Part shown: positions 1 through 35,800 of the stretch, piece after piece
How the letters are laid out: every line of letters starts with the position of its first letter
How positions within the stretch are numbered: position 1 is the stretch's first letter
NCBI GenBank assembly: GCA_964014485.1
Contig: CAXHAT010000062.1
Span: 1 to 39,134, forward strand
DNA from: an uncultured Deferribacteres bacterium
GTDB lineage: Bacteria > Zhuqueibacterota > Zhuqueibacteria > Zhuqueibacterales > Geothermadaptataceae
Length of the DNA: 39,134 bases
Direction of reading: 5' to 3'
Program-made: the position numbers and the translations under genes
Notes under the pieces: model-generated
The model's input: the letters and a program-made list of their open reading frames with translations, nothing else
Told to the model about the DNA's origin: nothing
Databases searched by the model: none

Positions 1-109
1 CCCCATCTGTTCATTCAGCCGTCATCATTTATGACTCGCTCACGATCCCCGCAACGAAGATTTGGAGGTGGGCCACCTCGCAATCCCCATCTGTTCATTC
101 AGCTGTCAG
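1..109 (-). CRISPR. Start of CRISPR array A, running off the left window edge; repeat about CTGACAGCTGAATGAACAGATGGGGATTGCGAG (33 nt)
   Basis: 1-24 repeats 85-108 with one mismatch. The full copy at 77-109 ends in GGGGATTGCGAG, as does array B. The 52-nt intervening segment holds a degenerate handle (39-52). Only about 1.7 repeats are visible. Confidence 0.7.
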
Positions 110-371
110 GGCGGGGATCGTAAACCTTTTCCCCACAACGACTTACGACCAGGTTTTCGAGCGGTCGGCCTGTCTTACTTACGGAACGCTCTTTTTTCAC
201 TCGCAATCCCGTCACACCCAGAACTTCATCGCGACCGCTCGCAATCCCCACGTATCGGTAACAGCCGTTTTTTCGGCAAACGGGTTGTTCTTCGGCGCTC
301 CACAGCGCCAACGCCCGCTTGCGACTTAGTTTTACCGGCTCCCCGCATACTTTGCAATCTATGTACGGCAT
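99..371 (-). CDS. Small putative Zn-binding protein (CxxC...CxxxxC); C-terminal half overlaps the CRISPR leader
   Basis: AGGAG RBS before ATG at 371; MPYIDCKVCG...PVCRKNGC. Confidence 0.4.
   Translation of the reverse strand: MPYIDCKVCGEPVKLSRKRALALWSAEEQPVCRKNGCYRYVGIASGRDEVLGVTGLRVKKERSVSKTGRPLENLVVSRCGEKVYDPRPDS
110..245 (-). promoter_or_regulatory. CRISPR leader-like sequence for array A
   Basis: Inverted repeat CGACCGCTCG (232-241) / CGAGCGGTCG (158-167), then an IHF-site-like CGTAAGTCGTTGTGGGGAAAAGGTTTACG (minus strand) next to the first repeat. This resembles type I-C/I-G-style leaders. Confidence 0.6.
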
Positions 372-436
372 GCTTTTCTCCTCTGTTGTGCTCGCTCCCC
401 AGCGGCCGAACCGGGTAGGTCTCGCTATCCCCACCT

Positions 437-697
437 TCATTCCACGATTCCTAATGCTTTCCTAATTTCACGCTGCGCATCCTTGTAACCCATGGCGTAC
501 ATCTCCGACGCCATCAGCGACACAGCTTCTTCCGGCGTGCGGACAGTCATGTCAATCACGACCCCCGACAGTTTGTGATAAATTTCGCACGGGCTTTCAT
601 CGTTCTCATTGTCCACAAAACCGAACTGTCCGATCAAGTCTAATACCTCCGCTTTCTTTTCAAGCAATTCGTCATATTCTGTTTTTATTTTTTTCAT
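437..697 (-). CDS. Hypothetical protein (86 aa) directly downstream of the dCas12f-like gene
   Basis: Starts 2 nt after the upstream stop; typical small phage ORF. Confidence 0.7.
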   Translation of the reverse strand: MKKIKTEYDELLEKKAEVLDLIGQFGFVDNENDESPCEIYHKLSGVVIDMTVRTPEEAVSLMASEMYAMGYKDAQREIRKALGIVE

Positions 698-699
698 TT

Positions 700-1923
700 T
701 TAACCTGCAATCTTTACTTTCGGCGGCGGCTCAATGCCCCAAACCTCGCGCCACTCGGATAGTTTGATGCCCACTTTAGAAAACACGATATGGTTGCACT
801 CAAGCTTCCATTTCAGATGACTCTCAAGCCGCGTCCAATCGAACGGTGCTCCCTTCGCTGACAGCCAACACGCATCACGGACGGGTGTGGTGGGCGAACG
901 ATATATCACCTTGCCGCAGTTGTTTTTGACGCACGATCTTATCACGTCCGCCACCATCATCTTCACAAATCGATCCTCCATGTCTTGCACTGCGCGGGAG
1001 TCGGGACGCAACGCGCGGTAAAACTGCTTTTTCCCCCTCCCCTTCGCCGCCGCGCCGTCTCGGTAGCGATACCGCGTCGCTTTGCGGCGAATCTCCAAAC
1101 GGCGGAAACCCTCCGCCAAGGGCAATCCGTCGCCCATCCACCAGCGCCATCGTTTGTCTTCCGCGCCGGGAAAAAAGAACGCAAACGGTCTGCGACCGTC
1201 CGGCGACGCCGGTACAATCTCCGCCACTCGCTCCGCATCCAGATTGTGGTCCTTCGTCGGGACGGGGTAGCTAAGCTGAAAAAACCACTTGCCTTTTTTG
1301 AAAACGAAAGAACTATCGCCCGCCTTATATTCCTTGCGGACTATCTTCTTTAAAATCTCTCTCTCGCCGTGCGACATCTGCCTCACTTCGAGCCGGCACA
1401 AGCCACGCATCTCTTTGCGTCCTGCCTGCTGAGAATAGATCGGGAAGCTCAGCACCGCTGAATCTTCGCCCATCCACAAATTACGCTGCGTCGCTTTTGC
1501 ATTACTGGCCAAACCGTCGTAGTAAATGCAAAAATCCTGACACGGCGCTGGCAGAAATATCGATCGGTGCGACGGTAACGAAAACTCGTTGGAAAGTATC
1601 GCCTTCCAGCGGTACTTTTCGCCGCGATGATTCCACGGCGTCTTGCCCCGCAGCCACTTCTCCACGCCGCGCTTGCATGCGCTGACGATCTTCGAGTTGA
1701 GCCGCGGGGCGGCGTCGCGTCCAGAGTTATAGATCGGTATTCCCCACGGTTTCTCCGCGAACTTGTCCGTGTCTTCGTCTTCGTGAAAACGTTGCCAGCG
1801 ACGCGCTACGGCGTTGCGGGCCACGTTGGCCATATCCGCCGCCTCTTGCAGGTCGGCGTGCAGGCGAGCGGTCGTTGTGTTGAGCGCAGCGCCGAGTTTA
1901 ATTTGTAGCGTACCTTGCGGCAT
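700..1923 (-). CDS. cas12f: Cas12f1/TnpB-family RNA-guided protein, predicted nuclease-dead and C-terminally truncated (407 aa)
   Basis: Colinear motif matches to AsCas12f1 as recalled: RLNSKIVS~RLNSGNLS; ILSNEFSLPSHR~ILRGDMSIPSYK; KKGKWFFQLSY~KNKWYLNISY; KGRGKK~GGHGRD; NCGKVIY~GCGTIQM; LESHLKWK~LQQKIIYK. RuvC-I D position is V237 (VAEIVPA) and RuvC-II E position is R342 (VIYRSP). No CxxC Zn finger or NAD/RuvC-III motif. Confidence 0.85.
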   Translation of the reverse strand: MPQGTLQIKLGAALNTTTARLHADLQEAADMANVARNAVARRWQRFHEDEDTDKFAEKPWGIPIYNSGRDAAPRLNSKIVSACKRGVEKWLRGKTPWNHRGEKYRWKAILSNEFSLPSHRSIFLPAPCQDFCIYYDGLASNAKATQRNLWMGEDSAVLSFPIYSQQAGRKEMRGLCRLEVRQMSHGEREILKKIVRKEYKAGDSSFVFKKGKWFFQLSYPVPTKDHNLDAERVAEIVPASPDGRRPFAFFFPGAEDKRWRWWMGDGLPLAEGFRRLEIRRKATRYRYRDGAAAKGRGKKQFYRALRPDSRAVQDMEDRFVKMMVADVIRSCVKNNCGKVIYRSPTTPVRDACWLSAKGAPFDWTRLESHLKWKLECNHIVFSKVGIKLSEWREVWGIEPPPKVKIAG

Positions 1924-1978
1924 ATTATCCCCCCCCGTGTTAAAGCAATGTTGCGGTCTTCTCGCCCTCGCATCCCCG

Positions 1979-2497
1979 TTAGGCCATCTGTCTCTCTACC
2001 AATTTTTCTAGTTCTGCTAGTCTTCCGCGAAGCTCCGCGTTCTCGATCTCCAGGTCGTTGATGCGCTGGATCAGCGTCTTTCGATCGGAGATGGCCGTTG
2101 TAGCTTCGTCGAGTTCCTTCTTTAGCTTCTCTGCCTCTTTCTTCCATGATGTGCGGTGTCCTTGGAGTGTTTCCTTGGACTCTTCCGCGCGGCTGTCTTC
2201 CCACTCCGCGTGCATCGCGGAAAGGTTGTAGTTCCGCTCGATCCACTGATTCTCGCTTGGGAAATGCCGATAAATATCCAGCAGCGTTCCGAGCGTCAGC
2301 AGGCCGGAGATAGCGGAGAAATACTCGCTCTCGATAGCGGCTTCGGCTGCGTCCAAATTTCCGCCGTGGACTTGAGCGATCCAATCGGTATCGCTCAGAA
2401 TCTCCGCCGCCAGCTTGACGCTGCGGTAGATGTTGCGTCGTAGATTGCGCGAAACTTCTTTGAGTTCTGCGATTTTTTGCGTTGTGGTTTTTGGCAC
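1979..2497 (-). CDS. Hypothetical protein with C-terminal coiled coil (172 aa)
   Basis: Heptad-rich C-terminus (LKKELDEA...LEIENAELRGRLAELEKL); tightly packed operon upstream of cas12f. Confidence 0.7.
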   Translation of the reverse strand: MPKTTTQKIAELKEVSRNLRRNIYRSVKLAAEILSDTDWIAQVHGGNLDAAEAAIESEYFSAISGLLTLGTLLDIYRHFPSENQWIERNYNLSAMHAEWEDSRAEESKETLQGHRTSWKKEAEKLKKELDEATTAISDRKTLIQRINDLEIENAELRGRLAELEKLVERQMA

Positions 2498-2499
2498 AA

Positions 2500-2877
2500 T
2501 TAAAACCTTTCTAATATGTTAGTCTGACAGTCATAGGGATTAAAACCGATAAACACGACTTTTTCGAAGCTGTACGTTTCTTTTAGCCACGCCGAGATCT
2601 TGTCCAGAATTTTCGGCGGCGTCCACGCGGATTGAAACTTGATCAGAATCGGCGTCCCGTCGCCGTCCAGGTCGAACGCTTTCACCCGATACGTACCCCA
2701 CTTTGTGCCCCAATTATGCATCGCCCAATCGTACCAATCATCTGTTGCCTTCACTGCTTCAGGCATAGGCAATAAGTCCCTACACGGATTCTTTTCTTCA
2801 TATTCCACATTAAATGCCTCCACATCAAACTCGTCGCCGGGCGAGCAGACAGCCATTGTGGTGTAGTGATTCGGCAT
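2500..2877 (-). CDS. DUF1281/YubB-like ferredoxin-fold protein (125 aa)
   Basis: MPNHY start after a GGAGG RBS; WYDWAMHNWGTKW and FQSAWTPP motifs. Confidence 0.75.
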   Translation of the reverse strand: MPNHYTTMAVCSPGDEFDVEAFNVEYEEKNPCRDLLPMPEAVKATDDWYDWAMHNWGTKWGTYRVKAFDLDGDGTPILIKFQSAWTPPKILDKISAWLKETYSFEKVVFIGFNPYDCQTNILERF

Positions 2878-2906
2878 ACGGTTTTGACTTCGCCTCCCCC
2901 GAAGAT

Positions 2907-2950
2907 AAAAAAACCGCGCCGCCGCGTGGGGGTAAACAACGACGGCGCGG
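2907..2950 (-). terminator. Rho-independent terminator ending the candidate tracrRNA
   Basis: GC-rich stem CCGCGCCG...CGGCGCGG followed by T7 on the minus strand. Confidence 0.8.
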
Positions 2951-3178
2951 CAATGGGGATCGACCGGGCCTTGCGCTCTGCGCCACGTCTCAAGGACGCC
3001 TGCATATCCGGTCTTCGTTTCGGTGGCCTTCTGCGAGAGTTGCCGGGCGCTTGCTACAGGGTCATGGATTCCGCAGGGGACTTTGGAATACGCACGATTG
3101 ATCCTGTCTTGCGACACCGGTACTTGCTCGCCACTCAATGGGCCTGCGAGCGGCCCAAACGCGACGTTTGCCGCGTCT
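2907..3178 (-). ncRNA. Candidate tracrRNA/scaffold for the Cas12f-like protein (~270 nt)
   Basis: Has its own promoter and terminator. Hairpin UGGGCC-GCUCGCA-GGCCCA (3139-3157) has a loop complementary to the repeat 3' end UGCGAG. GAUCCCCAU (2953-2961), just before the terminator, is complementary to repeat AUGGGGAUU. Confidence 0.7.
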
Positions 3179-3184
3179 AATCTA

Positions 3185-3212
3185 ATTGTATCAAGTGTGG
3201 CTTGTTGGGCAA
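3185..3212 (-). promoter_or_regulatory. Sigma-70-like promoter
   Basis: TTGCCC-N16-TACAAT with extended -10 TG, just after the helicase stop. Confidence 0.65.
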
Positions 3213-3227
3213 GTGTTTTTTTGAAGA

Positions 3228-4811
3228 TTATTTCTCGGGTTGCCATTCCTCTAAAATGTAAGAAATAATCTCCCGCTTCTTTTCGATCGCGCGATACAAC
3301 GAATGATCGACCGTGTTCTTCGCGACGAGCCGATAGAACACGCACGGCCTCTCCTGCCCTGGTCGCAGAATGCGAGCCAACATCTGATCGTATTTATCCA
3401 GGCGAAATCCGATGGAGTACAGCACACACAAACGGCTGCGGGTCAGGTCGATACCCTCCGCACCGCTGTCAATCTGCACGCCGCACACGTCCACTTCCGC
3501 CATGCGCCCCATATCGTCCAGGCCGTCCCTGCGCCTCCCGCTCACTTCGCCGTAGTGCAAGCCGAGTTTCCGCGCCACCATCTGCACGCTTTGCAGACAA
3601 TGCCGAAACCGACAAGCAACAACAACCGGCTCGTTGACATCCGTTAAAATGTCCGCCAGCACGGCTTCCTTGCCGCTCTCGAACTCATGGATTTTATCTG
3701 TGTCGTCCTTGATGTGCCCGCTCGTAATCTGCTGCAATCGCAACAGACGCACTAGCGCGTTCTCAGCAGTGATAACGCCGGCGGCAATCTCGGTAATTAG
3801 CTCTTCCTCAAGCTGATCGTAGAGCGTTCTCGCCTCCTTGCTCAGTTCGAACTTGCGAGTCTCGTGCATCGCTTTGGGAAGGTCGAGCACGTCGCCGGCC
3901 ATCACGCGAAATGAATATTGTTGGTAGATGCCGTTCAACTCTTCCTGATTAATCCATCGGTCCACCTTGCTCGGAAACATCTCGTTAAATACAGCATACT
4001 TACGAGAGAAGTCGCCGTAATTTGTGCCAAGGATGCCAGAATCGAGGAACCTAAATTGCCCAAACAAGTCCAGCGGGTTATTGCCCATCGGTGTGCCGGT
4101 GAGACACAGCCTACGCTTGGCCGTCAGTCCCAATCGATACGCCGCTTTCGACTGCTTACTTCCGTGCTTGCCGATGCGATGACTCTCATCGCAAACCATC
4201 AAGTCGCAGTCGCGGTTTTTCAGGCGATCAAACAACGGCTCGCGCCATGCCGACTCGTAATTCGCGACCACCGCGCATTGCGGGCCGTTCGCCTCCTCTA
4301 GAGTGGTTAGCTTGCGATCCATCGTGGATTGGTCAAGGCATACTACGTCGTAAGGCAAGGGCGAGTGTTTCTCGAACTCGCGCCGCCACACGCCGATCAC
4401 CGACTTCGGGCAGAGAATAAGCACTTGATCGGCCAGCCACGAATTGGCCAGCGCGATTGTGACGGCGCTTTTCATGGTGCCCATGTCCATCGCCAGCATG
4501 CCGGCATGCCGTTCCACCATCGAATTGAACGCGTCCACTTGATGCGGAAGCGGCGGCAGTTTCATAGGCACACGGCAGGCTTGAAAATCGCCGAAAAACT
4601 GCTTTCCTCGCAACGCGAGCAGATTAACTTCGCTGTTGACATCAAAACCTTCAACCATAATCCTTAGCGCCGTAATCGGCGTGGCCGTGCAGGTCCACTT
4701 ACAGCGGTCCTTGCGGCCTTGCCGCGCATCCGGCAGCGTGCGCAGAAATCCAGCGCGTTCGCCGGGTATGCGCGTCGTCAGAATTAACCGTCCGTCTTTT
4801 ATTTCGACCAT
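3228..4811 (-). CDS. SNF2-family (DEXH) helicase
   Basis: Q motif PHQ; Walker A-like MGTMKS; CDESH; LTGTP; GAEGIDL; QMLARILRPGQ. Confidence 0.92.
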   Translation of the reverse strand: MVEIKDGRLILTTRIPGERAGFLRTLPDARQGRKDRCKWTCTATPITALRIMVEGFDVNSEVNLLALRGKQFFGDFQACRVPMKLPPLPHQVDAFNSMVERHAGMLAMDMGTMKSAVTIALANSWLADQVLILCPKSVIGVWRREFEKHSPLPYDVVCLDQSTMDRKLTTLEEANGPQCAVVANYESAWREPLFDRLKNRDCDLMVCDESHRIGKHGSKQSKAAYRLGLTAKRRLCLTGTPMGNNPLDLFGQFRFLDSGILGTNYGDFSRKYAVFNEMFPSKVDRWINQEELNGIYQQYSFRVMAGDVLDLPKAMHETRKFELSKEARTLYDQLEEELITEIAAGVITAENALVRLLRLQQITSGHIKDDTDKIHEFESGKEAVLADILTDVNEPVVVACRFRHCLQSVQMVARKLGLHYGEVSGRRRDGLDDMGRMAEVDVCGVQIDSGAEGIDLTRSRLCVLYSIGFRLDKYDQMLARILRPGQERPCVFYRLVAKNTVDHSLYRAIEKKREIISYILEEWQPEK

Positions 4812-7914: not shown

Positions 7915-8009
7915 TTTCAAATCTCCAAAAAGTAAAGTGTAAGCCCCTGAAACGAAACAGAGCGGCGAGCCGGAGTCGAACCGGCGTGGACCAATCGCCG
8001 CTGCGCCGC

Positions 8010-8138
8010 CTACAGCAATGAAATTGCCAGGGCGGCGAACGCCACGCAGCTGCCGCATCCCTTCCAATCCCGGTCGCGGGCAGCGGACACGAAGCCTACG
8101 GAAGCGCTAACAAGCAAAAAAATGGCCAAAGTAAACAT
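8010..8138 (-). CDS. Small hydrophobic protein (42 aa), not in the ORF track
   Basis: TTTGGAGGATTG RBS; MFTLAIFLLVSASVGFVSAARDRDWKGCGSCVAFAALAISLL. Confidence 0.65.
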   Translation of the reverse strand: MFTLAIFLLVSASVGFVSAARDRDWKGCGSCVAFAALAISLL

Positions 8139-8232
8139 AACAATCCTCCAAAGTTAAAACCGAACAAACCTACAAACTGAAAAAGCGGCGCGCCGGAGTC
8201 GAACCGGCGTGATACCGTCGCCGCTGCGCCCG

Positions 8233-8448
8233 CTATCTTTCATAAAGCGGCACAATGTAGCCAAACTCAGGGCCCTGGCAATAGTACAGCGCGTACTCAC
8301 CGTCCTCGCTGCGATATAGTGCGGGCTCGTCATCGTGCGACGCGTGGCCGGGCTCCGCAACCAGCCGATAGTGAGTGTGGTTGGTCCAGATGTTTCGGCC
8401 GCATGGGGTGGCTGCGATGACTTTGAGCGTTTCTTTTTTTGTAATCAT
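8233..8448 (-). CDS. Hypothetical protein, first gene after sigma-54 promoter 1
   Basis: AAGGA RBS; MITKKETLK start. Confidence 0.65.
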   Translation of the reverse strand: MITKKETLKVIAATPCGRNIWTNHTHYRLVAEPGHASHDDEPALYRSEDGEYALYYCQGPEFGYIVPLYER

Positions 8449-8492
8449 AATTCGTTTCCTTGTGGTGTGGCGTGTTGACACGTGGCTATAGT

Positions 8493-8610
8493 TGCACGTC
8501 GTGTGCCAATCCGCAGAAAACCTTTGTTTTTGTTAGGTTTTCGGCGAATTGCTCTGTGGGTAGCTGTCTATAGATGGGACAGAAATCCCATTTAATTCCC
8601 ATTTTGGGAC
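8493..8610 (-). promoter_or_regulatory. Sigma-54 (-24/-12) promoter with upstream enhancer-like sites, copy 1
   Basis: TTGGCACACGACGTGCA (GG-N10-GC) at 8493-8509; upstream AT tract and GTCCCA motifs. Confidence 0.7.
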
Positions 8611-10015: not shown

Positions 10016-10114
10016 TCGGGTCAATTGTCACCGCTGACTCCTCACGGGTGGGCCTTACTCCGCCCACAGGAAAAAGCGAGTGGCGGGAGTCGAACCCGCC
10101 AAAGCCGCGTCTCG

Positions 10115-10339: not shown

Positions 10340-10654
10340 GGGAACCTCCAAAAAGTAAAAGTGAAACTGTTGTTAAAAGCCGCTGCGGGAATCGAACCCG
10401 CGTTACCAGGGCGGCTTGTGTGTTGTCGTCGTCGTTTTCTCATCGCCGGGCGATCGTGTCGCAAAAACCAGCGGCCCTTACCGTTGCCGGCGGGCGTGAG
10501 AGGGCAGGCGAGCGAACCGAAGGACTCTCAACTACGCGTGAGAAGCGCCGCAGAGTGCGGGATTGTAATCTTCGGCCACCAATTTAATGGTGTGCATCGG
10601 CCAGCCGTTCGAATTTTAAAAGAGCAAGTTGTCGTGTTGACGATTGACTATAGA

Positions 10655-10782
10655 TGCACGTCGTGTGCCAATTCGCAGAAAACCCGCAAACCTTTGTTTT
10701 TATTGGGTTTGCGGCGAATCGCTCTGTGGTTAGTTGTCTACAAATGGGACGAAAATCGCAAAATGGGACCCATTATGGGACA
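10655..10782 (-). promoter_or_regulatory. Sigma-54 promoter with upstream enhancer-like sites, copy 2
   Basis: TTGGCACACGACGTGCA at 10655-10671; region ~10634-10760 is a diverged duplicate of ~8473-8590; repeated GTCCCA motifs. Confidence 0.7.
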
Positions 10783-15542: not shown

Positions 15543-17569
15543 TATTCGTAATCAGAGAGAAAGATTACCTCGTCAGGCTGAATATGGAATTTGTTGTAGC
15601 CTTTTTTCTTCGCCTCCTCATACTCTCGCTCCATCTCTTCGTCGCTCTTCTTTTTCGCCTTATTTCTTTGAAGCCCGAGAATCGTAGCTTTTTGTTTCCC
15701 AAGTTCTTCGGGGGGAATTTCCACCATTTTTACCACCTGTATTTTATCGCCCCAGGCTGTTGTTTCGACTTGACTATATACCGGTCGATATTGAGTCAAA
15801 TGAGATTGCAGTAATTCCATTTCTTCGGGATAACTGCTGTGTTCCGCTAAATAATACCCCGTACTGGCCACAATATCAAATCGTACGCCGCTTGGTTCAC
15901 CGGGTTTTCTGTTGAGATCATGCTGGAAATTACTCGCATGCGCAGAACTGAACGACGTAGAACCCATGCCGCGCAAAGAAATTGCACCACCTTCCGCAAT
16001 CGCCTTGTCAATCCCCGCCGCCAATGTGGAAGAAAAAAGACTATAAGGCACACCGCGATACACCGTTTTCGGTGTGTCTAGTTTCTGCTTGGTGAGATGC
16101 TGCAAGTTTTTGAAGTGTGATGTTTGCTCGCTGTCAAGACATGTAAGCGTCTCCGGGCAATGTCTTAAACGAGCGTTGAAATCTTCGTGGAAGTAAGTGC
16201 TATATCTTTTTATCGATTGACTTGGATTGTGATTCCCTTTTTTGTTTCCCGGAAAATCTGGTGGATTCTTCTTTTGCCAAAACTGCATTCTCTTATCGAT
16301 TAATTTTACATCATCGTACGAACGCAACTCTTTAGGGAACTGAGAAAGCAACTCCTCGTTGGTCTTCGCGAAAATTCCGGTCTTATTTTCCTTGGCCGCC
16401 TTGGCCGCTGCGGCTTGCTCGCCGACCGGCGTGAAGCCAAACATTTCTCCTACCTTGCTTATAAAACTAGAGGTAGGCGTAGGAGTAGGAGTAGGATGCG
16501 CAGGAGAACTTTTGCCGCCAGTATTCTTTTCAAGCGACTCTTTAAAAACGTCTTCAATGTGGTTTTTGATGTTTATTATAGTAAATTTCTTTCCATGAAT
16601 ACTGATCTTCACCCCAAGTTTTTCGGCTACAGAGTCTACGACGCCCTCGGTTTCCAAAAGCAAATTCATCTCTGCTTGATCTTTAAAAAACTGCAATGTC
16701 TTGTCGTAACCGACATCACCAGCGTTTTCTTTAATTTTGTTTATTAACGTTTTAAATTTTTCATGATGTTCGTTTAATTTCTCTGGTGTTTCCTTTGCCG
16801 CATCGTGGGAGTTTTTGGCAAGATTGTATGATTCAATCAAATGCTTTGAAAGAATTTCGATATTATCATATTTAGTGGTGGCCTGCTTCATGCCAAGCGA
16901 CTTAACAACCTCTTTCAAATGCGCCGCTTTTTGGTTTTTAAGTTCAGACTTCGCCGCTAATAAATTCATTGACATCCCTTGGCCATTTAGACCAAGCTTG
17001 TTTAATTTGTCTTTGTATTCATCAAACAGTTTGATCGCATCCTTAGCATCCTCCTTCAGCTTGGCCGCTTTTTCCTTGGCCGCCGCTTCTTTTTCGGCTT
17101 TCTTCTTCGCCTTTTCTTCGGCTTGCTGTTTTTTGAGTTTTTCTTTTTCCAATTGGTCGGCGGATTTTTTCTTTACTGTTTTTTTCTTTACTGTTTTTTT
17201 CTTCGCGGTTTTTTTCTTCACCGCCTTTTTCACCGCTTTCTTCGCCTTGACGGCCTTTTTGGCAGTTTTCGCCTTCTTCGCCGTTCCCACGGCAGTCTTC
17301 TTCTTAGGCGCGGCCTTCTTCTTTTCTACCTTGACGAGCGTTCCCTCTTCGAGCGCCTGCGCACCCACAAACGCGCCTCCTTTGTATGTCTTGCCTTGGT
17401 ACGTTAACGTGTGTCCAGCCGGAACACGCGCAGCCGCTAACCGCTCGATACGCAACGACAAGAGACGAATCATTACCTTTTTGCCGGCGCGAGTCGATAC
17501 ATCGATCTTCGGCGCAGAAATGCCGAGACGCTGGAAACAGTTGAGTGAGAGGCGGTTAATCGTCTTCAT
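15542..17569 (-). CDS. Head-associated protein with a Lys-rich histone-like tract and C-terminal VIP2/C3-type (R-S-E) ADP-ribosyltransferase
   Basis: FNARLR, TVYRGV, GSTS and EEMELL motifs; KKAVKKKTAKKKTVKKK tract; overlaps the muF stop. Confidence 0.85.
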   Translation of the reverse strand: MKTINRLSLNCFQRLGISAPKIDVSTRAGKKVMIRLLSLRIERLAAARVPAGHTLTYQGKTYKGGAFVGAQALEEGTLVKVEKKKAAPKKKTAVGTAKKAKTAKKAVKAKKAVKKAVKKKTAKKKTVKKKTVKKKSADQLEKEKLKKQQAEEKAKKKAEKEAAAKEKAAKLKEDAKDAIKLFDEYKDKLNKLGLNGQGMSMNLLAAKSELKNQKAAHLKEVVKSLGMKQATTKYDNIEILSKHLIESYNLAKNSHDAAKETPEKLNEHHEKFKTLINKIKENAGDVGYDKTLQFFKDQAEMNLLLETEGVVDSVAEKLGVKISIHGKKFTIINIKNHIEDVFKESLEKNTGGKSSPAHPTPTPTPTSSFISKVGEMFGFTPVGEQAAAAKAAKENKTGIFAKTNEELLSQFPKELRSYDDVKLIDKRMQFWQKKNPPDFPGNKKGNHNPSQSIKRYSTYFHEDFNARLRHCPETLTCLDSEQTSHFKNLQHLTKQKLDTPKTVYRGVPYSLFSSTLAAGIDKAIAEGGAISLRGMGSTSFSSAHASNFQHDLNRKPGEPSGVRFDIVASTGYYLAEHSSYPEEMELLQSHLTQYRPVYSQVETTAWGDKIQVVKMVEIPPEELGKQKATILGLQRNKAKKKSDEEMEREYEEAKKKGYNKFHIQPDEVIFLSDYE

Positions 17570-18600: not shown

Positions 18601-18771
18601 CTATTTGGTTTTTTCTTTGCTTGATTCTTCTTCCTTACGCATGTCCAGGTCAACATATCGGCAAGATCCTTTTTCAACGCCAAATCTCTCTAGCCTTTTC
18701 GGGCGCTGCTCAATATGTTCTTCGATTTCTTTTTTGAATTTATTAACATGCTCTGATTTTTCGTTATTCAT
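18601..18771 (-). CDS. Small charged protein downstream of the second ART (possible immunity or partner protein)
   Basis: Start overlaps the ART stop. Confidence 0.5.
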   Translation of the reverse strand: MNNEKSEHVNKFKKEIEEHIEQRPKRLERFGVEKGSCRYVDLDMRKEEESSKEKTK

Positions 18772-19768
18772 TTGTTTCAATTTCATCAAGTTGATATACT
18801 ACCATGTTTTTACCAAGCGTCTTACGAGTTTTTTTCCCAACTACACGGTAATGCGTTCCATGCCTCTGCATAAGCTCCGTCTCCGGCTTGAATTGGGAAT
18901 ATGGCGCAACATAATGACCTGTTTTCGCACGGACTTCAAACATTGTTCCCTTACCCCATCCCGCATAAGAAATTGCCACATGTGGAGTTGTTGTTGTTGA
19001 GCGCATTCCGTCAAATGTCACCGCACCGTCATTTTTCAACGCTTTTTCAACATTTTCTATAATTGATGGGTCAGTTGTTTCTCGCAAACCAAAGTATACC
19101 GTTTCCGGCTCTGGAAGCTTCTGGGAGGCAAGTTTTTGGAGTTCGTCAAGTTTCCATTTATTGTGCTCGTCTACGCAATCAAGTGTTTCAGGGCATTCTC
19201 TTAATCTCCGATTGAGACGAGAATAGCTTGGAGAAGTATAGAACTTTATGGCTTGTAATTCTTTTTCGTTCAGCGGTCCCTGAGTTTTCTGCCATTTCGA
19301 CAAAGAAAAATACTTAAAAACTGAAGAGACTAACGAACGAAAGGATTTGGGGAATTCTCGCGCCGACTCCTCTTGGGATTTTGAAAACGCGCCCTGCTTG
19401 TTTTTCTTCAAAGATAAAATTTTGTCAACCGTTCTATTTTCTTTTCCTTTCGCCTTTTTGTCCTCATCACCTCCTGACAACTTTGCTTTTTCTTTCGGGG
19501 TGGCGCCATCCATCACTTCTTTGGGAATAAACTCACCGCCCTTGAAATTTTTTCCACCAATACTTACGCCACCCTTAGGGGCATGCACCGCTCCCATACG
19601 TCTTACTCGCAGCGCCAACAGTGTAATTGAAATTTTGCGCCCAGGACTCGATGACACATCAATGCATGCAGGCTGGATGACGTGCAGACGTTGGAAACAT
19701 GCCGCCGATAGCCGCGAAATATGCAATTTTTTTGCATCTCTCATCGACAACCTTTTTATTTTTTTCAT
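18764..19768 (-). CDS. Second ADP-ribosyltransferase-fold protein (paralog), with the conserved Arg position replaced by Phe
   Basis: YTSPSYSRLNRRLRECPETLDC, TVYFGL, RSTT, PETELMQ; N-terminus homologous to 15542-17569. Confidence 0.8.
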   Translation of the reverse strand: MKKIKRLSMRDAKKLHISRLSAACFQRLHVIQPACIDVSSSPGRKISITLLALRVRRMGAVHAPKGGVSIGGKNFKGGEFIPKEVMDGATPKEKAKLSGGDEDKKAKGKENRTVDKILSLKKNKQGAFSKSQEESAREFPKSFRSLVSSVFKYFSLSKWQKTQGPLNEKELQAIKFYTSPSYSRLNRRLRECPETLDCVDEHNKWKLDELQKLASQKLPEPETVYFGLRETTDPSIIENVEKALKNDGAVTFDGMRSTTTTPHVAISYAGWGKGTMFEVRAKTGHYVAPYSQFKPETELMQRHGTHYRVVGKKTRKTLGKNMVVYQLDEIETNE

Positions 19769-34708: not shown

Positions 34709-35149
34709 CTCGCAATCCCCACGTGCGCGCGAATCGAAGCGCACCGCCAACACTCTCGCCAACACTCTCGCAATCCCCACGTGCACGCGAAGTGCACCTC
34801 CCTTGACATTATTTCGCTACGCGGACGCCTGGTCTCGCAATCCCCACGTGCGCGCGAAGCGCACCGTGCTCTCCGGTCGGCAATCAATATTGCCGGTGAT
34901 ACTCGCAATCCCCGCGTGCGCGCGAATCGCACCTTTTTGCTTCTTTTATCTCGCAATCCCCGCGTACGCGCGAAGCGCACCCTGGCTGAGCATGGGCGAC
35001 TACAAGAGGCTGTGGCGCTCGCAATCCCCGCGTGCGCGCGAAGCACGCCATTTATTTATGACCGTAATCTCGCAATCCCCACGTGCGCGCGAAACGCACC
35101 TTGAACAAACCTATCCAAAAGCATCGAAACCCGCACTCGCAATCCCCAC
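34709..35149 (-). CRISPR. CRISPR array B: 7 full repeats plus one 3'-half repeat; consensus GGTGCGCTTCGCGCGCACGTGGGGATTGCGAG (32 nt)
   Basis: Repeat starts (+) at 34709, 34767, 34834, 34902, 34950, 35018, 35069 and 35136. Spacers are 21, 35, 36, 16, 36, 19 and 35 nt. Repeats carry a GTGCGC/GCGCAC hairpin. Confidence 0.93.
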
Positions 35150-35155
35150 ATCTCT

Positions 35156-35800
35156 CTAGTTTTGCGCTAAATTTCGCAAACTGTCAATCCCATAGTCGTA
35201 ATTTTCGTCGTCACTGGTACGCCATTTTGCAGACTGTTCGCTTGTATAAAGATGTGATGCGAGCTTGCGCGAATAACGCTCATCCTTCGTTACGAAATTC
35301 GGGTCGAATAACCTTACGCGATTGTTCGGCTGAATCGCAAAATTGCCATTGTCCAATTGTAAAACGTGGCCGCACTTATGCTGGCCCGGTGTCTCCGAAA
35401 AACCGTAACTGCGCAGGTCGTCGCCGAACCAATCAAGAGTAAATAAATACACGCCCACGTGTTCTTTTCTGTTTCTATCTACGTACGAAAGGCGTTTATG
35501 TTTCAAAATATCAAATACACATACATGACAGTTGTAAGAAAACGAATCCCATAAGCACACCTCGTCAAGAGATACTCGCCGCGCGTCTCGCTTATGACAA
35601 AAAGCGTGAATCGGCATACGCCACCATATACCGCCGTCGTCTGCGAAAAAATGAAAGAGCGGCGTTTGACCGGGGATCGAAGCAACGCCAAATATCTGAA
35701 CCGGCACAAACTCGCCGACATACTCCGCGCCGTGTTGATTCATAAACTCAAGACGGCAAAACGCTTCAATTGTCGGTATATTAATGTTCATCGCACGCAA
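35156..35800 (-). CDS. Conserved hypothetical phage protein
   Basis: WRMPIHAF, LWDSFSY, YLFTLDW and NGNFAIQPNNRV motifs recall a widespread uncharacterised phage family. Confidence 0.7.
   Translation of the reverse strand: MRAMNINIPTIEAFCRLEFMNQHGAEYVGEFVPVQIFGVASIPGQTPLFHFFADDGGIWWRMPIHAFCHKRDARRVSLDEVCLWDSFSYNCHVCVFDILKHKRLSYVDRNRKEHVGVYLFTLDWFGDDLRSYGFSETPGQHKCGHVLQLDNGNFAIQPNNRVRLFDPNFVTKDERYSRKLASHLYTSEQSAKWRTSDDENYDYGIDSLRNLAQN

Follow-up and report, generated by a model that had tools for sequence, protein, structure and literature searches.

Handle-only repeat units in the mRNA leaders of a phage-borne, nuclease-dead Cas12f locus match the predicted pairing segments of its tracrRNA

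We analyzed the whole of contig CAXHAT010000062.1 (C62; 39,134 bp, called the window below), one of 465 contigs of an 8.4-Mb bacterial assembly (G000). The window is phage DNA and carries a cas12f-like gene that is surrounded by short, solitary copies of the 3′ end of a CRISPR repeat, some of them lying directly after stop codons. The evidence set out below indicates that these solo handles are the minimal tag by which a transcript pairs with the predicted trans-activating CRISPR RNA (tracrRNA) of a phage-borne, nuclease-dead, type V-F-like system. We propose in addition that the complex of this tracrRNA with nuclease-dead Cas12f (dCas12f) binds mRNA leaders that carry the tag and that, at the copy in front of dcas12f itself, such binding provides feedback control of the gene. 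We hold this second proposal with a little less than even confidence, since we infer both the binding and its effect.

A first-pass annotation had listed five solo copies, and all five were recovered in place, every one on the minus strand, which is the gene strand. H1 (1967 to 1978; CGGGGAT-GCGAG) follows the TAA stop codon (1979 to 1981) of a 172-amino-acid (aa) gene with 0 nt between them, and its end lies 43 nt from the ATG (1921 to 1923) of dcas12f. It is one edit or fewer from the handle and keeps both GGGGAU and GCGAG, which would pair with the tracrRNA segments AR-1 and AR-2, respectively. H2 (421 to 434; GTGGGGATAGCGAG) starts 2 nt after the TGA stop codon (437 to 439) of an 86-aa gene, and the degenerate H3 (391 to 401; TGGGGA--GCGAG) is separated by 19 nt from H2 on one side and by another 19 nt from the ATG (369 to 371) of a zinc-finger gene (ribosome-binding site, GAGGAG) on the other. 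H4 (238 to 253; ACGTGGGGATTGCGAG) reproduces without change the 3′-terminal 16 nt of the repeat of array B, and H5 (200 to 213; GACGGGATTGCGAG, including (C)GGGATTGCGAG at 200 to 211) begins 24 nt past the end of H4. Both are in frame in the zinc-finger open reading frame (ORF), where they encode VGIAS and TGLRV, and, because that ORF is conserved as a protein, both lie in coding DNA. On this point the first-pass reading needs correcting. A sixth, degenerate copy, H6 (39 to 56; GCGGGGATCGTGAGCGAG), is also on the minus strand and sits in the 53-nt spacer of array A. All of the degenerate copies retain the GGG(G)A and GCGAG cores and differ at the junction of the AR-1- and AR-2-pairing halves or at the 5′ edge.

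Counting the motif genome-wide against expectation, as the first-pass annotation had suggested, showed the window to be strongly enriched. C62 has 13 sites that differ from the handle by at most one edit, every one of them on the minus strand, compared with 51, on both strands, in the remaining 8.36 Mb of the assembly and 19 in a reversed-genome control; from these counts, about 0.005 sites would be expected in the 1.8 kb from 200 to 1978, where four solo sites lie. With up to two mismatches allowed, the 12-mer occurs 19 times in the window versus 4.9 times in shuffled sequences (largest shuffle value, 12), and the two-part pattern GGGGA-N0-3-GCGAG has 13 minus-strand hits and a single plus-strand hit versus a mean of 0.52 in 200 dinucleotide shuffles. 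H3, which has two deletions and would be weak on its own, was counted because it lies 19 nt from H2. Outside C62, the assembly contains only three exact copies of the 12-mer, two of them on small contigs that are phage-like. The copy on contig C424 comes 2 nt after the stop codon of a DHH-family gene, with a primase-polymerase gene starting 38 nt farther on, and the copy on contig C365 is within a UvrD-like ORF; neither contig is proven to come from the same phage as the window. No array with either repeat type was found in the assembly outside C62, and the single looser match, on contig C129 (3 mismatches), proved not to be an array.

The reading of these copies depends on what they would pair with. 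The tracrRNA that the first-pass annotation had assumed is predicted at 2907 to 3178 on the minus strand, between an SNF2 gene and the next gene, and its pairing segments appear to match exactly the handle. It is about 270 nt long and is conserved in all six loci compared, which are the window, a metagenome contig (L001), part of a 61-kb phage record (L003, from G167), L004, part of a 37.7-kb phage record that is 95% complete (L016, from G168), and a contig of a 4.4-Mb Planctomycetota metagenome-assembled genome (MAG) (L122, from G170). From its 5′ end, the RNA is laid out as a hairpin with the loop CUCGCA (AR-2), a long internal stem, the unpaired segment AUCCCCAU (AR-1), and a predicted 15-bp terminator hairpin followed by U7. 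A promoter-like site (3185 to 3212, minus strand; TTGCCC-16-TACAAT, with TG before the −10 hexamer) precedes it and is a consensus match only. AR-1 and AR-2 are both unpaired in the minimum-free-energy fold. In the RNAalifold consensus, two invariant motifs bound the long internal stem, and the 5′ hairpin, the terminator, and a stem that covaries are also predicted; compensatory changes affect 18 of the 43 predicted pairs. No Rfam family matched in the window at gathering thresholds. Another candidate tracrRNA, at 99 to 200 (minus strand) between the zinc-finger motif and array A, was rejected; this stretch is the C-terminal part of the zinc-finger protein, conserved in six loci. One frame is open across the predicted tracrRNA into a 128-aa gene (2500 to 3345, minus strand), giving a 281-aa ORF from a GTG codon; it is probably no real extension of that gene, but it could lead gene callers to hide the tracrRNA.

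The handle, (A/G)UGGGGAU|UGCGAG, would pair with this RNA in two pieces, its 5′ half with AR-1, just before the terminator, and its last 6 nt with AR-2, in the loop of the 5′ hairpin. Across the loci, the AR-2 loop reads CUCGCA, CUCUCA, or CUUGCA, in each case the complement of the six bases with which the handle ends (UGCGAG, UGAGAG, or UGCAAG). AR-1 (AUCCCCAU in the window, CUUCGAC in L001, ACACACUUC in L003, ACAUGCUCUC in L004, and UCAUUCCUGU in L016) complements the 5′ half. In a cross-matrix of these five AR-1 segments and handles, the cognate combinations gave 7, 7, 9, 10, and 10 contiguous Watson-Crick pairs, against 2 to 5 for noncognate ones, and AR-2 gave 6 or 7 pairs where the handle of the tracrRNA's own locus shares the 3′ end of the tested handle and otherwise 2 or 3. 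We used this complementarity matrix in place of summed duplex energies, which possibly counted bases twice and for which the first percentile of the control (−24.6) fell within the range of the handles (−20 to −26). AR-1 and AR-2 together complement exactly the 14-nt handle that arrays A and B share with the solo copies, and both covary with the local handle. Array A (1 to 107, minus strand) has the repeat GAC[AG]GCTGAATGAACAGATGGGGATTGCGAG twice and is cut off by the end of the contig; array B (34709 to 35150, minus strand) has eight units with the repeat GGTGCGCTTCGCGCGCACGTGGGGATTGCGAG, a hairpin followed by the handle, and ends at a terminator. The 5′ parts of the two repeats differ, as they likewise do between the arrays of L004, and they can differ completely because the two tracrRNA segments cover just the 14 nt that are common. 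The first unit of array B is handle only (35136 to 35150) and comes just after a TAG stop codon (35156 to 35158), in keeping with the earlier remark that this array opens with a half-repeat behind a stop.

The effector gene, annotated in the first pass as cas12f, has the Cas12f fold but not an intact nuclease. Its 407-aa product (700 to 1923, minus strand) has no Pfam or PHROG match, and a word-indexed search returned only two close relatives; when a library of 1.84 billion representative proteins, each standing for a cluster at 50% identity, was searched with a profile, 605 proteins matched at an E value of ≤0.001. AlphaFold2, run with an alignment of 120 relatives, gave a model with a predicted local distance difference test (pLDDT) score of 94.9, for which the best Foldseek match was AsCas12f (8j1j; E = 1.1e-19; template modeling score, 0.61). 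Other Cas12f structures were matched as well, among them that of a nuclease-dead dCas12f (9n9c; E = 3.9e-14), and the family profile matched Cas12f entry 9nzq in the PDB (E = 8e-21). The column aligned to the RuvC-I aspartate of AsCas12f, in the GIDLG motif and changed to Ala in entry 8dzj, is nonacidic, and the adjoining column is Leu in 97 of the 120 relatives. In the RuvC-II strand, the window protein has Ser343 where 96 of 120 have Glu. It ends about 45 residues past W363, shortly after the strand that follows RuvC-II, and so has neither the zinc finger (TNB) nor RuvC-III; the median tail past W363 is 47.5 residues, and none of the 120 tails contains two CxxC motifs. Because the RuvC-I aspartate, the zinc finger, and RuvC-III are missing, the protein, as judged from its sequence and model, is a natural, C-terminally truncated dCas12f, which suggests that the system binds its target rather than cutting it.

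A handle in the leader of the effector gene recurs in the relatives. Five of the six loci carry one no more than 45 nt upstream of the dcas12f start codon, at distances of 43 (window), 16 (L001), 25 (L003), 20 (L004), and 31 nt (L122), and L016 carries none. What fills the gap between the 172-aa gene and dcas12f differs from locus to locus. L001 has a three-unit mini-array there, with its first unit overlapping the stop codon and its last ending 16 nt before the ATG; L003 has a 13-unit array, with a handle-only first unit 3 nt after the stop and a last unit, with a variant handle, ending 25 nt before the ATG; and L004 has a six-unit array ending 20 nt before the ATG. The window has H1 alone, and in L016 the dcas12f start overlaps the stop of the upstream gene, with nothing between them. 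We therefore regard H1 as the apparent one-unit counterpart of the upstream array of the relatives. In the window, the sequence right behind H1 (1937 to 1966; GGCGAGAAGACCG) resembles a stretch of L003 (5079 to 5090; GGCGAGAACCGG), and both resemble the invariant GGCGAG-AAGU motif of the tracrRNA; L001 does not share such a stretch behind the first handle after its 172-aa gene.

The extreme case is L122, which has no array. Its tracrRNA lacks a terminator, and a CAU triloop links AR-1 (CACGU) to a handle (ACGUGAUGCGAG) that runs on directly into the ribosome-binding site of dcas12f, whose ATG lies 31 nt on. The 20 nt after this handle have no second match with three or fewer mismatches in the 4.4-Mb MAG, in which handles occur at background frequency (24 versus 20 in the control). 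A handle near the dcas12f start thus persists where the rest of the array is gone.

At the other extreme, phage record G167 holds 77 handles with two or fewer mismatches (58 forward and 19 reverse), whereas the reversed pattern gave 0 on either strand. The arrays flanking dcas12f account for about 45, and two mini-arrays account for others; a set of 25 outside the arrays consists of the handle without the 5′ repeat part, and 10 of this set come at a fixed distance behind a promoter-like module. This extended −10-like module, RGTRYHATRYA, is present in 11 copies, and 10 of these are followed by a handle at exactly 5 to 6 or 10 nt; the module-handle pairs lie on both strands and are partly arranged as divergent pairs. 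Many of the handles are followed within 15 to 60 nt by a Shine-Dalgarno sequence and a long ORF, including the 172-aa homologue and dcas12f. A TGGTATAAT box before the G167 tracrRNA (L003, 4065 to 4080) is an extended −10 like those before a subset of the solo handles (46608-, 53142-, and 53353+), a likeness that suggests coexpression of the tracrRNA and the solo handles. The same phage encodes a 196-aa protein with a C-terminal CsrA domain (L005, 14475 to 15062, minus strand; Pfam E = 6.4e-24), a second potential regulator that binds mRNA leaders.

These arrangements can be brought together as follows. Since the handle complements two single-stranded parts of the tracrRNA, any transcript that bears it could be taken up by tracrRNA-dCas12f, and the next 20 nt or so would then occupy the guide position. 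The handles of the long minus-strand operon stand right after stop codons and 19 to 43 nt before the next start codon (dcas12f, the zinc-finger gene, and the C424 primase gene), and because of this placement, the captured "guide" would be the leader and ribosome-binding region of the next cistron. When dCas12f and tracrRNA are in excess of array-derived CRISPR RNAs (crRNAs), they would bind the leaders of the dcas12f mRNA and its neighbor and lower their expression, so that negative feedback is most likely the consequence of any leader capture. We propose leader binding because the tag is all that the tracrRNA appears to recognize, because the tagged sequence is the next leader, and because L122 keeps the two in a fused arrangement. 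We cannot tell whether the effect would be exerted on RNA, by occlusion of the ribosome-binding site, or on DNA, by a self-formed R-loop with the …GAG of the handle as target-adjacent motif (TAM). The first-pass annotation had put forward two ideas, that mRNA segments serve as non-array guides and that a ribonucleoprotein regulates the cas12f transcript; both fit the data and are partly supported.

Several observations weigh against leader binding as the function of the solo handles. Phage record G168 has 15 handles, all in a single downstream array, and no solo copy, so that solo handles are dispensable for the system. In G167, the distance from handle to ATG ranges from 1 to 60 nt, and the ribosome-binding site therefore does not always fall within a 20-nt guide. 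H1, H2, H3, and H5 are degenerate and could be decaying remnants of an upstream array, and H4 and H5 overlap semiconserved residues of the zinc-finger protein, so that their conservation is perhaps partly a matter of coding. Only six loci were available, three of which share the UGCGAG ending, and three DNA sequencing runs contained short contigs identical to the locus and hence no variation on which constraint could be tested. A look for RNA sequencing runs covering positions 1 to 3300 yielded none.

The alternative that survives best is that the solo handles are nonfunctional debris, left by the upstream array (H1), by small arrays (H2-H3, H4-H5, and H6), or by recombination between arrays, and tolerated because they fall either between closely spaced genes or, without shifting the frame, within a linker of the zinc-finger protein that varies. 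Substitutions or deletions mark four of the six solo copies, genuine arrays (3, 13, and 6 units) take the place of H1 in relatives, the G168 system works with no solo copies, and no solo "guide" has a target in the sequences searched. Debris would hardly be expected, on the other hand, to leave the array-less L122 with exactly one handle, fused to the tracrRNA and placed before dcas12f, or to place G167 handles at fixed spacing behind 10 of 11 promoter-like modules; the degenerate copies of the window also keep both pairing cores, and H4 is an exact 16-mer. We judge debris to be rather unlikely; for the window's degenerate copies, plain array decay is nonetheless a serious rival.

A bolder version of leader capture, which we offer as a speculation with a rather low probability, is that mRNA leaders are the guides of this system. 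Transcription units would begin with a handle or be punctuated by one, and each nascent transcript would arm a tracrRNA-dCas12f complex that acts in cis on that message or goes back to the promoter-proximal DNA from which it came; with the conserved 172-aa and zinc-finger proteins as partners, the phage would have a self-programming circuit that times expression or sites R-loops. The same circuit would then be seen at three scales, small in H1 to H5, large in the roughly 25 promoter-led handles of G167, and minimal in the L122 fusion.

Targets for the guides were sought in several sequence sets. Fifteen guides of the window (seven solo and eight from array B), searched with blastn-short against the 8.4-Mb assembly, gave only chance-level matches, the best being an array spacer with 20 nt matched with one mismatch (E = 0.037). 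The G167 guides had no second match of at least 15 of 18 nt in G167, paralogous units aside; 116 guides of five loci, searched against the assembly and all loci, gave only matches at E = 0.026; and the large G167 array gave four weak matches (E = 0.1 to 0.5) among 50,697 phage records. As no protospacer was found in the searched sequences, no TAM could be derived, and, the TAM not being known, such guide searches do not exclude a short seed match.

These searches bear on two further explanations. In the first, which we consider improbable, the tagged transcript loads dCas12f and pairs with the template strand of its own leader, with …GAG as TAM, and the resulting R-loop blocks or modulates the downstream gene, so that G167 would represent a genome-wide timing switch. 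The known dCas12f and TldR proteins bind DNA under RNA guidance, and for dCas12f-σE, PMC13472631 reports a minimal 5′-G TAM. The handles of all six loci end in AG, each solo guide matches perfectly at its own locus and nowhere else in the sequences searched, and the G167 handles lie 5 to 10 nt past −10-like boxes, where a self-formed R-loop would be promoter proximal. Against DNA self-targeting stand the lack of any protospacer from which a TAM of the family could be derived and the fact that the repeat end is not a protospacer-adjacent motif in ordinary CRISPR systems; in addition, every array spacer would bind its own locus as well.

In the second, the solo units are trans-acting regulators of the CreR or crlRNA type, whose short guides pair partially with a promoter elsewhere, in cas, phage, or host DNA, and repress it. 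Degenerate mini-arrays beside cas genes are reported, in two studies (10.1101/2023.03.10.532045 and 10.1101/2023.03.03.530964), to autorepress systems of types I-B, I-E, and V-A, and H2-H3 and H4-H5 resemble two-handle mini-arrays with 19- and 24-nt spacers. The chance-level results with the 15 window guides count against such regulators to the extent that the 8.4-Mb assembly represents the host, whose genome is possibly incomplete and whose link to the phage is unproven. Those for G167, which has no second matches other than in paralogous units, point the same way, and we regard trans regulation of this kind as quite improbable.

We think it very improbable that the handles are punctuation for processing, at which tracrRNA pairing directs cleavage of the polycistronic transcript into handle-led units, because, although handles or half-repeats lie 0 to 7 nt after stop codons in six places (H1, H2, the first unit of array B, C424, L001, and L003) and arrays open with a unit that has no 5′ repeat part, which would follow if this part were only the 3′ trailer of the preceding unit, the duplexes are short (6 to 10 bp in two pieces), RNase III needs duplexes well longer than that, and the promoter-led handles of G167 need no processing.

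Cas12f guide RNAs have two repeat:anti-repeat duplexes. The window system resembles type V-F (AsCas12f and Un1Cas12f1) in its fold, in its small effector, in a tracrRNA that would pair in two segments with the 3′ part of the repeat beside the guide, and in arrays that flank the gene. It differs in being phage borne, in its lack of the RuvC-I aspartate, the zinc finger/TNB, and RuvC-III, in having no Pfam match to Cas1, Cas2, or Cas4 among the 39 ORFs scanned, in arrays whose repeats have different 5′ parts around a common 14-nt handle, and in its handle-only units outside arrays. TnpB processes its own mRNA into ωRNA, and the ωRNA of IscB is encoded in the 5′ region of its gene. In those systems, as proposed here, an RNA-guided protein binds an element in its own transcript, which couples guide production to its own expression. 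Here, however, the scaffold is a separate tracrRNA, L122 excepted, and the element belongs to the 5′ leader, so placed that the guide position is taken by the ribosome-binding region.

The dCas12f-σE systems of PMC13472631 (Nature 2026) are likewise built on a naturally nuclease-dead, C-terminally truncated Cas12f, and structure 9n9c matches our model. That paper proposes a drift from arrays to single chimeric guides, of which L122, with its cis-fused tracrRNA-handle and no array, looks like a case, whereas the window has a separate tracrRNA and arrays; it also mentions briefly a distinct CRISPR-associated dCas12f cluster near CRISPR arrays. The present loci differ in that the partners of dCas12f are a 172-aa coiled-coil protein and a small zinc-finger protein instead of rpoE and in that the solo guides would be the genes' own leaders. 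CreR, crlRNA, tracr-L, and scaRNA are also degenerate repeat units beside an effector gene for which autoregulation has been proposed. Those act in trans through partial complementarity to a promoter, for which we saw no match in the 8.4-Mb assembly, whereas the units described here are handle only and embedded in mRNAs after stop codons; in Shmakov et al. (10.1101/2023.03.03.530964), V-F and Cas12f have 0 occurrences. The phage RNA anti-CRISPRs known as Racrs (PMC10651486) are also solitary repeat-like units in phage genomes, but they mimic host repeats, whereas the handles here match the phage's own arrays and tracrRNA. Full-text literature searches turned up no account of a phage dCas12f with such a tracrRNA, of handle-only units in mRNA leaders, or of promoter-handle modules, although a tree in the figures or supplements of PMC13472631 may include the family.

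Natural nuclease-dead relatives of Cas12f and TnpB have lately been recognized as RNA-guided transcription factors, and the locus adds to them a phage-borne family, for which 605 proteins matched in the library of representatives. It comes with a defined, predicted tracrRNA, and its guide tag is bipartite and, at 14 nt, very small. If tagged mRNAs are indeed taken up as guides, a gene's own transcript would be coupled in a new way to RNA-guided control, through autoregulation by crRNA mimicry or through R-loops in cis, and one would see an evolutionary path along which arrays gave way to dispersed single-guide units. Builders of compact regulators would also be interested in a DNA-binding Cas12f scaffold of 407 aa whose 14-nt tag could be added to any transcript.

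CRISPR arrays with variable spacers are present in the window (A and B), and those of relatives reach 15 and more than 35 units. The spacers of array B measure 35, 20, 36, 16, 36, 35, and 21 nt; the alternation of long (35 to 36 nt) and short (20, 16, and 21 nt) spacers is an irregularity unusual for an acquired array. A sequence, TCATAAAT, is common to the 20-nt spacer of array B and the stretch after H6 in array A (24 to 38).

Two neighboring genes are shared by all of the loci. The 172-aa gene (1979 to 2497, minus strand) encodes a helical N-terminal domain and a coiled-coil tail and is a conserved neighbor of dcas12f, with homologues adjoining it in L001, L003, L004, L016, and L122; searches of Pfam and PHROGs with its product gave only coiled-coil noise, and an Atlas search gave only leads below threshold. 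The zinc-finger gene (99 to 371, minus strand) encodes 90 aa with the motif CxxC...CxxxxC. Its product is conserved over its full length in all six loci, and its stop codon lies in the first repeat of array A, as it lies inside the first downstream repeat in each of the five loci that have a downstream array. The notion that this protein is the split-off TNB domain of Cas12f was rejected after a PDB profile search found only an unrelated zinc ribbon (E = 0.85). A complex prediction for dCas12f and the zinc-finger protein (score, 0.00) spoke neither for nor against an interaction. The 86-aa gene (437 to 697, minus strand) occurs in the window locus only; the other five loci have no such gene between dcas12f and the zinc-finger gene.

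No Pfam match to Cas1, Cas2, or Cas4 and no sigma factor or rpoE was found among the 39 ORFs scanned (5 around dcas12f and 34 further window ORFs), and in all six loci, rpoE adjoining dcas12f is absent. Elsewhere in the assembly, contig C365 (L114), which is small and phage-like and whose linkage to the window's phage is unproven, encodes a 183-aa protein with a sigma-70 region 4 domain (Sigma70_r4; 1421 to 1969, minus strand), which is worth noting given that sigma factors are the partners with which known dCas12f proteins act.

The phage genes of C62 include a terminase, a Mu-type portal, homologues of Mu F and gp36, a head-decoration-like protein, and the SNF2 helicase, and almost all genes are encoded by the minus strand; the binning is the basis on which a host is assumed for the phage. 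Other loci of this kind were sought in several ways. A 16-mer of the tracrRNA matched 105 viral stretches, and of the 80 scanned, L016, L019, and L047, which represent one new phage, contained the dcas12f gene, while L026 and L055 were L003 and L004 found again. A two-part tracrRNA pattern returned the same phages from viral sequences and eight stretches from genomes, one of which (L122) had the gene. Scans of viral sequences and of genome contigs with alignment A1 gave no further loci, a tblastn search of cultured phages gave a single match, distant and transposase-like, and among 167 genomes of the host phylum, only G000 has the gene.

Four other features of the window were seen in passing. 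A GGAGTCGAACC-type stretch occurs in several copies at 7956 to 8235 and 10070 to 10107 and would be a tRNA T-arm on the minus strand; ARAGORN called no tRNA. Next to the Mu F-like head gene, a 334-aa ORF (18767 to 19768, minus strand) has an ADP-ribosyltransferase exoenzyme domain (Pfam E = 2.1e-9). Two blocks of about 125 nt (8468 to 8590 and 10630 to 10760) are repeated 2.2 kb apart with 85 to 87% identity, and a T-rich repeat with a 15-nt period, in four to six copies, lies at 17162 to 17239 within a long minus-strand ORF.

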